Origin: Pirellulales bacterium | GTDB taxonomy: Bacteria > Planctomycetota > Planctomycetia > Pirellulales > PALSA-1355 | NCBI GenBank assembly: GCA_963733035.1 | Contig: CAVTBU010000006.1 | Coordinates: 128,001-192,000 of the forward strand | DNA: 64,000 nt | Direction: 5' to 3' | The notes under the pieces: model-generated | What the model was told of the DNA's origin: nothing | Databases searched by the model: none | What the model saw: the letters and a program-made list of their open reading frames with translations, nothing else | Shown here: positions 16,333 through 20,183 of the stretch, piece by piece | How the letters are laid out: each line of letters begins with the position of its first letter | Numbering within the stretch: position 1 is the first letter of the stretch | Made by a program: the position numbers and the translations under genes

Positions 16333-16605
16333 TCAGGCGCTGCCGTCGGTGGGCCGCGGCGCGTTGCGAAGTTGCTCGAGTGAACGGCCCAGCCGCTTTT
16401 TCGGCTGTTTGCGCGCGGGAAGCTCACTGCTGAGCGAGATGGCCTTGGGGGCCGCGTCGTGGAGCACGGCCGCCAGTTGTGGGTGCAATTCCTCGCCCTC
16501 GGTGACTCCGCCGATTTGCTCCACGGCATCGGAAAAGCCCAACAGTACGCTGCGACGAACGCTATCGCGAATCCAGCCGAATACTCCCAAATTGCCGTTG
16601 CTCAT
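16333..16605 (-). CDS. Small hypothetical protein (planctomycete-type)
   Basis: MSNGNLGVFGWIRDSVRRSVLLGFSDAVEQIG...KRLGRSL; protein-like composition. Confidence 0.7.
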   Translation of the reverse strand: MSNGNLGVFGWIRDSVRRSVLLGFSDAVEQIGGVTEGEELHPQLAAVLHDAAPKAISLSSELPARKQPKKRLGRSLEQLRNAPRPTDGSA

Positions 16606-16742: not shown

Positions 16743-16781
16743 AAAAAAACCAGCCGCGTCCCGAAGGGGCGACGCGGCTGG
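16743..16781 (-). terminator. Rho-independent terminator of the PEP-CTERM operon
   Basis: 11-bp stem CCAGCCGCGTC/GACGCGGCTGG followed by 7 T on the minus strand. Confidence 0.85.
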
Positions 16782-16819
16782 CAGCGTTGCTATCAATCGC
16801 TACGGGTTGCCAGGTTCGG

Positions 16820-17557
16820 TCAGGCGCGCGCCCGACGACCGTGCTTTCGCCAACCGAGCGTCCCTAGGCCAATCAAGCCCAGGAACATCAGGACGACCGC
16901 GCTTGGCTCCGGAACGCCGATCGCGGCAAACGCGGCGACGCCGTCGTTGAAGTCGGCACCGGAGATGCCGTTGGTGCCGATGGCGTAAAACACGTTCGAC
17001 GTACCGTACGTGGTCGAGCCAGTCGAACGGACCTCAAATCCAACGGCGTACAATCCAGCGAGCGCGCCCACGGGCAGGTTGACTGTCACGGCGTTGTGAA
17101 AGCCAAGGTTGCCGTTGTAACCACCACCCGCGGCCAGATCGCCACCGGTGACCAGCGTCGAGTCTTTGTCGACGTCGAATGCCACGCCACTGCGAACGAT
17201 GGTCGCAGTGACGGAGGCATCGGTGAAGCCGTCCACGGGATTCCAATACAGCAGAGGACCGATGATGTCGAAGCCCCAGGTCGAACCGATGTCGATGCCG
17301 TTTGGCGGATCGGTGGTGGCAAACGCGGCGGTGAACTGCAGCGAGTTGGTCGTCACGGAATTGATCGCGTAAGAACCGGGCTCGAAGACCGAGTCGTCTT
17401 GTCCGACCGGATCCAGGACCGGTCCGTAATAGACGCCTGCGGTGGAGGTGAAGTTGCCGGCGCCGTTGACGTAGAACGACTGGTGCAATCCGTGGGCAAA
17501 GGCGGACGTCGGTGCCGCGAGGGCAGCGCAGACCGCTAGCGCAGAACCAATATTCAT
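16820..17557 (-). CDS. PEP-CTERM sorting domain surface protein
   Basis: Signal peptide (AFA/HGLH); C-terminal VPEPSA, TM helix and RKHGRR. Confidence 0.9.
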   Translation of the reverse strand: MNIGSALAVCAALAAPTSAFAHGLHQSFYVNGAGNFTSTAGVYYGPVLDPVGQDDSVFEPGSYAINSVTTNSLQFTAAFATTDPPNGIDIGSTWGFDIIGPLLYWNPVDGFTDASVTATIVRSGVAFDVDKDSTLVTGGDLAAGGGYNGNLGFHNAVTVNLPVGALAGLYAVGFEVRSTGSTTYGTSNVFYAIGTNGISGADFNDGVAAFAAIGVPEPSAVVLMFLGLIGLGTLGWRKHGRRARA

Positions 17558-17621
17558 GGGAGACGCTCTCTGTTATTCAAAGTTTGTTGATGTTTTCAAA
17601 AACGTTGCGAAGCTGGAGGGC

Positions 17622-18344
17622 TTAGGACTTGCGCAGCCGCAAGCTCCGCAGGCCGTGAACCGCCAGGCCAATGCCGGCCAACAGCGCCAAGATGACACTC
17701 GATGGTTCCGGCACCGTGATGGCGGCCGCATACAACTGGCCGGCGATGATGGGCAGGTTGCCCACAGGCAGGCCGTTGTTGAAAACCGCGACAAACGGAT
17801 CGGACGGCGTGAATGGGTGGCCGGAGCTGTCGATACCCGTCAATTCCATCGCAACGGCATAGGTTCCGATGGGAACACCCGACGGCACGTCCCATTCGTA
17901 ATACAGTTGATGCTCATAGGTCCCGAGATTCGTTCCGTCGAATTCGCCGATGAGGAAGCCCGGTTGAAAGCCGGAACCACCCGTCACCGTGACTGAACCG
18001 GGGACCGAAATATCCTGCGGTGAGATGTTCATATCGACCGGCGAGGGAATTGGGGAGCCGCTGCCTACGGTGTACCAAAGTGGTCCCAGCACATCGAAGG
18101 TAATGCTTGCGCCGCCGCCAATGCCACTTTGCACATCGAAACCCGGATGGTCGGTGCTCTTGTAAGTGGCAGTACCCAGCAAGGCTTGCACCGTGTAAAT
18201 CGGCAGGCCGCCGGCAGCCGGATCTTCCGAGGTGAGGACCAGCTTTCCGTTGTCGTTACTGATCAAAAAGCCGTGGCCGTGGGCCACGTTGGCCGAGGCA
18301 GCGGTTACCGCGACGAGTGCGGCGAGGGTGAATTTATTCATCAA
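17622..18344 (-). CDS. PEP-CTERM sorting domain surface protein
   Basis: Signal peptide (AHG/HGF); C-terminal VPEPSS, TM helix and basic tail; AGGAG RBS. Confidence 0.9.
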   Translation of the reverse strand: MMNKFTLAALVAVTAASANVAHGHGFLISNDNGKLVLTSEDPAAGGLPIYTVQALLGTATYKSTDHPGFDVQSGIGGGASITFDVLGPLWYTVGSGSPIPSPVDMNISPQDISVPGSVTVTGGSGFQPGFLIGEFDGTNLGTYEHQLYYEWDVPSGVPIGTYAVAMELTGIDSSGHPFTPSDPFVAVFNNGLPVGNLPIIAGQLYAAAITVPEPSSVILALLAGIGLAVHGLRSLRLRKS

Positions 18345-18373
18345 AACTGTCTCCTAAATAATCGAGGATATTT

Positions 18374-19128
18374 TCATTCGTAGTTAATCATGGAGGCATC
18401 GGTTATGGGCATTGCAAAGTTGTGACCGGTCGTAAAGTTGGATTGCCTCCACGACTCGATGTCTTGCTCAACCCAGCGTTGGATGGTCTCCTTAGAGATC
18501 GTTTCCACGTGGCCGTCTCCGTAGAGGTAGTTGGCCGCTTCAGAGTGACGATCGATGTTGATCTCGGCCAGGATATTGACCCACACCACATCGTGCAGGA
18601 TGCGCGGCGCAAATACCACAGCGACGTGTGGACGTGCTCGGTCGAAATGTTCATGGGACGCTGATCGGATCCCTCGAAAATCATCAACAGCCGGTGCGTA
18701 TCCTGCGTGCGGTTGATGTTCGTCACACTGTCATCGACTTTCGGATTCGATACGTACTCGTTGATGACGTACGACGTTCCGGGTGGATCGGTCAACAGCC
18801 GGTCGTGACCGGTCAGGTCGTCCTGGCAGATCCGAATCGCGTCGACGCTCTCCAGAAAGGGAGCCAGCGTCGCTACCCAAGACTCGTTCTTGAGTACCGT
18901 GCCGTCCGCAGCGAAAACGTCCTGATGATACGTGAACGGAAACTGGCCGGCGTGCACGTCGACGAAGGTTTGGATTGCGATCCCGATCTGCTTCAGATTG
19001 CTGATGCAATGCGTGCGGCGCGCGGCAGCGCGCGACGCCTGAATGGCGGGCAACAACAGCCCGACGAGCACACCGATGATGGCGATCACCACCAGCAGCT
19101 CCACCAACGTGAAACCTCGACGATTCAT
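18374..19128 (-). CDS. DUF1559 prepilin-type N-terminal cleavage protein with H-X9-DG C-terminal motif, apparent frameshift near 18612
   Basis: [31 protein letters not shown]...[23 protein letters not shown] lies in the adjacent frame. Confidence 0.9.
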
Positions 19129-19303
19129 CGTGAGGACTCCCAATCCGTAAAGAAGGCCGGCAAGTCCGCCCTCCGACGAGGCAAGCGATGTGACGATCGG
19201 ACAGGACCCGAAAAATCAACATCGATTGACGCGCAGGTTCGCCGAAGCAAATCGTCCCGGCGACGCGGAATGCCATTGCGAAATGGCCACGCGAAAGATG
19301 CCG

Positions 19304-19948
19304 CTAGGCGCGCGGCGGCGGAACGGCAGGCAGATCGGAAAGGGAGAGGTGTGTATCGTCGGCGACGTCGACACGACCCGCCAGCGTCCACTCAAACTCC
19401 CACAGCGTGGGGATTTCAACGGGCAGATTCGCGCCGCTGCTCAGCCATAGCGTCGTCAAGCCTTGGCACTTCTGGGCTTGAATGCCGCTGACCCAGACGA
19501 TGCGAGCCTTGTTTGACGAGGTGGCCTGTTGATGTTCGTGTTGGTGGTCGGCCTTGTGAGCGCACGATCCGCCGTGGCCGCAGGCTTTGCAGTTTTTGGC
19601 CAGCTGTGATTTGTTCTTGCAGCAACTCTTTGCTGCCCGCGCGTCACGCCGCGCTTCGGCCTGGAGCGCCGCGATGGTGGAGGCGGTCAGGCGGATGCCG
19701 TGCTGGCGTACCCAGGCGAGCCGTTCGGCCGCCGAGTAACAACAGCAGCTGTCCCAGCATTGGGCCGCCGAATTGCAACCGCAGGCATGCCCTTGGCAGG
19801 GGTAGGGGGTCGAGGCGTCCTGAGCGACCGTGGGCATCGGGAGCGGATATCCCGTCATGCTCGCCACGTACGCCAGCAGCGCCAGGCCGGTGACCATCCG
19901 GCGGCAGCTTAGCGGCGAAAGCGAGAAAACTCGGCGGGAAAACATCAA
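19304..19948 (-). CDS. Cys/His-rich exported or membrane-anchored protein ending PAVPPPRA (DUF2946-like)
   Basis: N-terminal hydrophobic segment; PCQGHACGCNSAAQCWDSCCC, CC, CKAC, HQHEH and KCQG motifs; Pro-rich C-terminus. Confidence 0.78.
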   Translation of the reverse strand: MMFSRRVFSLSPLSCRRMVTGLALLAYVASMTGYPLPMPTVAQDASTPYPCQGHACGCNSAAQCWDSCCCYSAAERLAWVRQHGIRLTASTIAALQAEARRDARAAKSCCKNKSQLAKNCKACGHGGSCAHKADHQHEHQQATSSNKARIVWVSGIQAQKCQGLTTLWLSSGANLPVEIPTLWEFEWTLAGRVDVADDTHLSLSDLPAVPPPRA

Positions 19949-20154
19949 TGATCAGTCTGGGAAGTTTGGCCACGCATTCGACATGGGGGGTGTCGAACTG
20001 ACACGTGTAGCCATGGGAGAGAAAGAAGATCCTTCGACAAAGCCTCAAGCGTCCGTGCGGAGCGAAGCTTTTACAGAATCACGAGCAGTACTCGGTAGCG
20101 AAGGTTTCTTGTCGAAAGCAGACAGTCCGGCTCCAGGGGAGCCAGATTTCAAGC

Positions 20155-20183
20155 AACCTAGTCGTGGGCGATGCCCGTGTCAA
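20155..20183 (-). promoter_or_regulatory. Putative sigma70 promoter for the Cys-rich/DUF1559/PEP-CTERM operon
   Basis: TTGACA-17 nt-TAGGTT on the minus strand. Confidence 0.65.

Follow-up and report, generated by a model that had tools for sequence, protein, structure and literature searches.

What does a bacterial transcription unit do in which product after product carries candidate metal ligands, and how is it controlled? This question is raised by a minus-strand unit, nucleotides (nt) 20183..16743, in a stretch of DNA from a Pirellulales bacterium (assembly GCA_963733035.1, contig CAVTBU010000006.1, positions 128,001 to 192,000), the whole 64,000 nt of which we call the window. Between a promoter and a terminator, the unit holds a Cys-rich leader open reading frame (ORF), a DUF1559 gene and two PEP-CTERM genes. 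An earlier note on this DNA had read the unit as a metal-scavenging module headed by a DUF2946-type upstream ORF. The anatomy of the leader, the fixed distance between its distal Cys and its terminal proline pair (PP), its first position in the unit and its gene neighbours are established here, and we consider it rather probable from these sequence comparisons that the leader acts as a nascent-chain metal sensor in the manner of CruR, representing a new eight-Cys family, and controls envelope metal-binding proteins.

The window's leader is made up of a hydrophobic segment (approximately residues 17–33), a seven-Cys cluster (C50–C69), a variable Cys/His linker, C160 and a terminal PAVPPPR. Invariant across its family are the cluster, C-x4-C-G-C-x5-C-x3-CCC, one distal Cys and a terminal PxxPP. 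At E ≤ 0.001 the family comprises 2,544 cluster representatives, of which 923 remain at 1e-30, and it was found in 22 of 31 relative genomes and in 29 of 301 genomes across the phylum, spanning several classes. An N-terminal hydrophobic stretch is seen by hydropathy in 142 of 150 members, and shorter forms of 144–175 amino acids (aa) occur in two planctomycete families with small genomes (f46 and f97).

This is a separate eight-Cys family and not a member of DUF2946. No Pfam or NCBIfam family fits the leader or any of 33 family members, PF11162 (DUF2946) matches none of these at E ≤ 1 and, searched against the genome, returns other loci, and a PDB sequence search with the leader matched no solved structure. 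Atlas look-alikes (DUF6769, DUF8199 and DUF6660, at 0.85–0.86) are leads only, and a complex prediction of leader residues 40–100 and 146–190 with Zn scored 0.03 and is not used as evidence. A literature search, with most subscription journals outside its coverage, returned no publication on this family of leaders or on regulation of DUF1559 by metals. Of the earlier DUF2946 assignment, what survives is the CruR/CutF-like character of the upstream ORF. The metal-ligand features claimed for each product likewise stand for the leader Cys clusters, the DUF1559 HxH motif and the His-first PEP-CTERM proteins; the exception is HQHEH (leader residues 134–138), which lies inside the variable linker, is carried by 0 of 176 homologs (HxHxH by 2 of 176) and is unsupported as a functional motif.

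The family is marked by a regular spacing. We collected 72 sequences, dropped 6 that were broken or truncated and scored the 66 that were intact. The distal Cys lies 49–54 residues before the last PP (49–52 in 65 of the 66; standard deviation 1.0), whereas the linker preceding that Cys varies from 29 to 125 residues (standard deviation 27.7) and the spacer itself has a median pairwise identity of only 14%. A second set of 150 proteins, 2 of which have no full Cys cluster, left 148 to score; a Cys sits 49–52 residues before PP in all 148, against a mean of 13% for other 6-residue windows, a set biased towards this result because it was ranked by a profile that incorporates the spacing. The near-terminal motif PxxPP(R) is likewise present in 148 of 148, with R after PP in 129, and the spacer resembles a membrane helix in only 5 of the 150 proteins.

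The same distance is found in characterized and uncharacterized DUF2946 proteins. In CruR, CxxC occupies residues 90–93 and RAPP 139–142, so that C90 to P141 measures 51 residues, and a five-residue insertion is reported to impair regulation (PMC9426467); arrest of CruR has been demonstrated in vitro (PMC12992588). Among planctomycete DUF2946 members, the first Cys of CxxC is 49–50 residues from PP in 12 of 12. The supplements of PMC9426467 contain one planctomycete DUF2946 protein, with no DUF1559 neighbour there. A published survey of CutF-like proteins left out those above 150 aa (PMC9973294), and would therefore have left out most of the leader family.

The operon itself is real and conserved across relatives (Table 1). 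Its promoter and terminator, both claimed in the earlier note, check out directly at their coordinates, and the promoter exceeds chance because the pattern TTGAC-N18-TAnnnT is seen again at all 14 orthologous loci with the 5′ untranslated region (UTR) element described below; it is also present in 10 aligned upstream regions. A consensus scanner missed both the promoter and the terminator at 16743-16781, which conservation and folding recovered. Gene order, for which a synteny survey had been proposed, is conserved comparatively. The complete four-gene order of the window is a minority form, found mainly in its own family and order, because the short HxH subtype of DUF1559 described below is carried by 21 leader loci, 17 of which have a His-first PEP-CTERM homolog.

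Table 1. Features of the minus-strand unit, in order of transcription (window coordinates)
Feature	Position	Strand	Basis and remarks
Sigma-70-like promoter TTGACA-N17-TAGGTT	20155..20183	-	TTGACA 20183-20178, TAGGTT 20160-20155; read directly
5′-UTR element, candidate cis-regulatory RNA	20018..20108	-	Alignments, covariance model
Leader/upstream ORF, 213 aa, 14 Cys	19304..19945	-	ORF and homolog alignments; predicted ribosome-arrest sensor
Intergenic region, 175 nt; predicted coupling site (Rho-type termination or other)	19129..19303	-	Leader to DUF1559
DUF1559 prepilin-like gene, short HxH subtype, H-X9-DG tail	18374..19128	-	Pfam/NCBIfam, orthologs
PEP-CTERM protein 1, predicted mature N-terminus His-Gly, predicted beta-sandwich	17622..18341	-	Homologs and AlphaFold
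PEP-CTERM protein 2, predicted mature N-terminus His-Gly-Leu-His	16820..17557	-	Pfam/NCBIfam, signal-peptide prediction
Intrinsic terminator, GC-rich hairpin then T7	16743..16781	-	Read directly; folding -27.7 to -29.1 kcal/mol

The arrangement suggests the following mechanism. During translation, the N-terminal hydrophobic segment would thread the seven-Cys cluster toward the periplasm, and the ribosome would pause at PxxPP once the eighth Cys, approximately 50 residues upstream, had cleared the ribosome tunnel and the translocon. The eighth Cys and the N-terminal cluster would then bind metal together, replacing the CxxC of CruR, and the pause would be altered. A paused ribosome would keep the operon expressed; once it is released, Rho would be free to terminate transcription within the long intergenic region, as in CruR. 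That direction, with a pause meaning that the operon is on and release meaning Rho termination, such that the downstream genes are on when metal is scarce, is in our assessment likely. The metal would be bound and retained in the envelope by the HxH-type DUF1559 protein together with the His-first beta-sandwich proteins of the PEP-CTERM kind.

The region after the leader is where CruR-type and CutF-type coupling part ways. Across 99 loci, the distance from leader to next gene has a median of 189 nt (range 60–554), and the genome holds a canonical rho gene; long intergenic regions and rho together fit the CruR mode. A second, shorter rho-like gene (G000:C8:67039-68124, where G000 is the window's source genome) scored 483 bits, below the cut-off. 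In the CutF mode, a stalled ribosome would release the downstream Shine–Dalgarno (SD) sequence; by folding prediction, access to the SD is gained in only 5 of 94 loci and lost in 1, with the window locus going from 0.51 to 0.43, which disfavours this mode. An SD-sequestering pairing in one fold of the window (z -0.7) was not upheld across the 94 loci. We therefore prefer the CruR mode, by exclusion and in view of the capture-like cargo.

Upstream of the leader lies a second candidate regulatory element. It is approximately 90 nt long, starts approximately 45 nt after the promoter and consists of a closing helix (CTTCG/CGAAG), an invariant GCYnRTGA loop, a second hairpin and a pyrimidine tract. 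A covariance model matched once per genome in 12 of the 33 family genomes (seven being training loci and two weak matches being unrelated) and was matched in 8 of 150 order genomes, and all of the new strong matches fall between the promoter and the operon. Three loci with weak matches (L230, L231 and L239) have unrelated surroundings, and we took these matches to be chance. Rfam 15 placed nothing over the element, in the window at E ≤ 1 or in 8 loci at E ≤ 5. A four-helix proposal pairs 76% compared with 73% in shuffles (5 of 500) and has three compensatory pairs, a number reachable by chance among relatives; the small helix alone gave no covariation signal. The element, in which covariation is weak, is probably a structured RNA specific to this operon. 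Its GCYnRTGA loop is reminiscent of the fluoride riboswitch in its 3′ half, a riboswitch that Rfam did not match here.

The gene after the leader encodes a prepilin-like protein (PF07596, E 5e-11; PF07963, E 2e-8) with an H-X9-DG tail (TIGR04294) and EHVH at residues 164–167. In the window it is one base short at approximately 18612, such that the first 172 codons are read in one frame and the H-X9-DG tail in another, which ends at 18374. Its orthologs are continuous, and in all 15 that are intact the HxH motif, the H-X9-DG tail and two Cys are invariant. We compared 158 proteins of the genome with two same-genus genomes; in the 79 that were orthologous enough to score, 14 frameshift junctions were counted over 39,764 residues, approximately 1 per 2,800 codons. 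Because several sites recur against both reference genomes, these indel errors belong to the window's assembly. The DUF1559 frameshift is thus probably an assembly error, and given this genome-wide rate, split genes in the assembly should not pass as pseudogenes without reads.

The HxH motif sets the subtype apart, being present in 17 of 17 subtype proteins and in 0 of 57 other leader-linked DUF1559 proteins with a complete tail. Its structure is predicted at low confidence (AlphaFold, pLDDT 55), and in the PDB the only sequence match was to the pilin helix. DUF1559 proteins are described as being of unknown function, with 68–74 paralogs per genome (PMC2754498, PMC10632474). The proposal that this protein stands where other bacteria have a TonB-dependent receptor applies to gene position only: a prepilin-type protein is no outer-membrane barrel, and transport is unsupported. 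The genome has one TonB-barrel match.

The two PEP-CTERM proteins are distant paralogs (28% over 200 aa), and in both the predicted signal peptide ends immediately before His-Gly. Protein 2 scores 21.5 bits against the PEP-CTERM profile (cut-off 20.7); protein 1, at 18.8, falls just below, with an evident motif and homologs annotated PF07589. Protein 1 has 33 database matches, itself included. Its mature N-terminal His is kept in 37 of 39 proteins and two more His (in DHPG and EHQ) in 30 and 31 of 39, and A-x-[AG]-His-Gly is found in 22 of 24 such leader-linked PEP-CTERM ORFs. An N-terminal His after signal cleavage is reported to mark metal chelation (PMC12537917). AlphaFold predicts a confident beta-sandwich for protein 1 (pLDDT 93), and fold searches returned generic Ig-like, fimbrial-adhesin and beta-sandwich matches only, the best at Z 7.5; a Z below 8 is under the tool's level for specificity. 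An Atlas look-alike, a 'metallo-mystery pair four-Cys' cluster at 0.88, is a lead only, and NF038134 (choice-of-anchor M) matches no window protein, only the PEP tail aligning with the member at locus L029. The parallel once drawn with the zinc-binding protein All3515 (ZepA) did not hold at the level of family: the H-X2-9-H-F/Y-H zinc motif is absent from both proteins, which makes ZepA an analogy only, and neither matches a ZepA-type NCBIfam family, no sequence-to-sequence comparison with ZepA having been made. Nor was a palindrome or evident Zur box seen around the promoter in the aligned upstream regions, judged by eye with no formal motif search. The fold libraries searched with protein 1 contained no ZepA structure.

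The surroundings of the leader in other genomes bear on what it might regulate. We assembled 153 unique leader loci and counted the 107 that lie outside f46 and f97 and have at least 700 nt downstream. A prepilin-motif gene directly follows the leader (within 650 nt) in 90 of the 107 and occurs within 3.5 kb in 101, compared with 25 prepilin motifs in the 6.6 Mb of the genome. Pfam, applied to 156 downstream ORFs (most of 212 candidates with a few added, some in the wrong frame), identified DUF4198 in 12 loci, AhpC/TSA in 6, PepSY_TM in 5 and CCP_MauG in 1; a further 24 chosen ORFs added PepSY_TM in 3 more loci, Phenol_MetA_deg barrels of the outer membrane in 4 and a YcnI-like DUF1775 match below threshold. 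NCBIfam found choice-of-anchor M in 1 leader locus, and Met/His-rich PEP-CTERM-like proteins lie downstream in five (L024, L187, L190, L191 and L195). The short leaders of f46 and f97 (L047-L054, L056, L057, L059, L061, L063 and L064) precede YcnI-like His-first proteins or His-first outer-membrane barrels, not DUF1559; several of these genomes have two short-leader copies. Genes listed for CruR operons include PepSY_TM, YcnI, AhpC/TSA and MbnPH-like (PMC9426467).

A second locus in the source genome (L240, G000:C8:384592-387216, plus strand) repeats the arrangement under a different leader. There, a His-rich CxxC...RAPP ORF with a spacing of 48, below the PF11162 and NCBIfam thresholds, is followed by an HxH DUF1559 gene (C8, approximately 385,500), the genome's only close paralog of the subtype, and then by a His-first PEP-CTERM protein of another family that has an HxH motif. 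DUF2946 matches precede DUF1559 genes in 5 of 12 cases. With the HxH DUF1559 and His-first PEP-CTERM pair found under two different Cys/PP leaders, the leaders appear to be interchangeable. Elsewhere in the genome (L066/L241, G000:C7:393474-396396, plus strand), a bona fide DUF2946 leader lies ahead of a long ORF with a DUF1559 prepilin-like second half, and a Fur-family gene lies approximately 14 kb beyond. At locus L077 (1847-3220, plus strand), a DUF2946 leader stands ahead of a COG0523/CobW-type GTPase, judged by eye, which suggests that this DUF2946 member is zinc-linked. A third candidate from the genome scan for Cys/PP leaders, on contig C9, looks like a chance ORF.

Which metal would be sensed can be estimated from the neighbouring genes only. 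Copper is on this estimate about an even call, zinc would be the less likely choice, and nickel or cobalt would be improbable. It is a bolder and doubtful proposal that the 5′-UTR RNA and the eight-Cys sensor, with a periplasmic site completed by the late Cys, form a two-tier switch running TonB-independent metal capture, in which HxH DUF1559 pseudopilins would take metal from the His-first PEP-CTERM proteins.

Several observations weigh against a CruR-like metal sensor. CxxC is found at the ruler position in 0 of 148 leaders, and RAPP is likewise absent; at 190–260 aa, the family exceeds CruR and CutF in size; and the hydrophobic segment of the window's own leader is weak (mean 1.38). In a profile comparison with DUF2946, the hydrophobic segment alone aligns (probability 36%), which indicates the same geometry without family membership. 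At the end of the leader, no C>G bubble of the rut type goes beyond what Pro codons account for (C–G skew after the stop codon 0.024, compared with a baseline of 0.007). The identity of the metal is split, as the neighbour DUF4198 binds Zn in one report (Zcp, PMC12663993) and prefers Ni in another (IsDUF4198, PMC12537917). The leader loci are related rather than independent. Finally, at one locus (L238, G006:C121:1416-3014, plus strand), the promoter and UTR element directly precede an HxH DUF1559 gene and a His-first PEP-CTERM gene, with the leader missing; the leader may be dispensable there, or this may be a natural deletion or an assembly fault.

That locus lends itself to a different explanation, in which the leader is a plain membrane-anchored Cys-rich metal-binding or chaperone protein, the UTR element or a Fur-family repressor regulates the operon and the proline tail is structural. 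The persistence of the UTR element where the leader is lost would fit, as would the large size of the leader, its well-conserved N-terminal domain and the two Fur-family genes in the genome. Yet a length-fixed, sequence-free 50-residue spacer in the DUF2946 register is not expected of a chaperone, nor are a long gap before the next gene and an unvarying place at the head of the unit; no conserved palindrome is evident by eye around the promoter, no formal motif search having been made; and the UTR element is almost confined to one family, whereas the leader spans several classes. We regard this explanation as improbable. The same holds for a reading that keeps the arrest but changes the signal, whereby the leader would sense periplasmic disulfide-forming capacity, the eighth Cys pairing with the odd Cys of the cluster and the resulting pull freeing the ribosome. 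Eight invariant Cys allow four possible disulfides, AhpC/TSA genes lie downstream in 6 loci, arrest peptides are reported upstream of thioredoxin and DsbA genes (PMC12992588), and for CutF it has been proposed that the Cys are joined in disulfides when Cu is absent (bioRxiv 2025.02.05.636593). Set against these points, CruR operons also contain AhpC/TSA genes (PMC9426467), and most recognizable downstream products are of metal-binding types (DUF4198, His-first, Met-rich, YcnI-like and choice-of-anchor M). Metal sensing and redox sensing are not mutually exclusive.

Least probable is a generic cassette for surface structures or adhesion, made up of pilin-like and Ig-fold PEP-CTERM proteins whose His and Cys motifs are unrelated to metal supply. 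Fimbrial adhesins and generic beta-sandwiches are indeed the only fold matches of the PEP-CTERM protein, and DUF1559 (25) and PEP-CTERM (about 120) genes are abundant in the genomes. Those fold matches are below the level of specificity, however, the N-terminal His that marks metal chelation (PMC12537917) is kept in nearly all homologs, and the HxH subtype and His-first proteins occur together under two different Cys/PP leaders.

Known metal-sensing arrest peptides comprise two characterized proteobacterial examples with CxxC-type sites. If the proposed sensor is correct, a family of approximately 2,500 clusters that retains the same ribosomal ruler but divides its ligands between a distal Cys and a seven-Cys cluster far from it would broaden this mechanism and help to test how Cys chemistry couples to stalling. 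The leader would also mark which of dozens of planctomycete DUF1559 paralogs are likely to be metal-regulated. With the HxH subtype and its partner surface proteins defined, the long-open function of DUF1559 becomes testable in cultured, genetically tractable planctomycetes.

Beyond the terminator, a small conserved ORF of approximately 90 aa without a family match (16333-16605, minus strand) precedes a TetR regulator and an etf/Fe-S oxidoreductase operon; it also lies directly beyond the terminator in several relatives (L016-L020).

Among known systems, the nearest analogy for the PEP-CTERM proteins is ZepA (All3515), the Zur-repressed Zn-binding PEP-CTERM protein of Anabaena (PMC10957091). 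It shares with the window proteins a signal peptide, a mature N-terminal His, a beta-sandwich, a PEP-CTERM anchor and approximately three conserved His; unlike ZepA, they have neither its zinc motif nor an evident Zur box, and their control is predicted to run through the upstream ORF. DUF4198 proteins are His-first exported beta-sandwich metal binders, as the window pair is predicted to be, and they take the slot after DUF1559 in 12 leader loci; they are absent from the window and unrelated by Pfam to its two PEP-CTERM proteins.

For the leader, CutF of Rhodobacter capsulatus (PMC9973294; bioRxiv 2025.02.05.636593) offers a terminal PPPR-type motif and Cys ligands on an exported nascent chain. 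Unlike the CutF-like proteins surveyed, the leader is beyond the 150-aa limit and its downstream genes look capture-type rather than detoxification-type, and at leader loci, unlike in CutF, no hairpin that masks the SD sequence until a stalled ribosome opens it is conserved. The nearest system is CruR (Bp2923, DUF2946) of the cruR-bfrG/crtA-crpH operon of Bordetella pertussis (PMC9426467; PMC12992588; PMC13038864). The leader differs from it in having no CxxC or RAPP, a single distal Cys with a separate seven-Cys cluster, a greater length and no PF11162 match, and the gene that follows is usually a DUF1559 prepilin-like gene rather than a TonB-dependent transporter. What the two share is the position of first gene in the operon, an export-type N-terminus, a Cys approximately 50 residues before the terminal PP at fixed spacing, a long intergenic region (162 nt in CruR and 175 nt at the leader locus) and, in the wider family, downstream PepSY_TM, YcnI-like, AhpC/TSA and MbnH-like genes.

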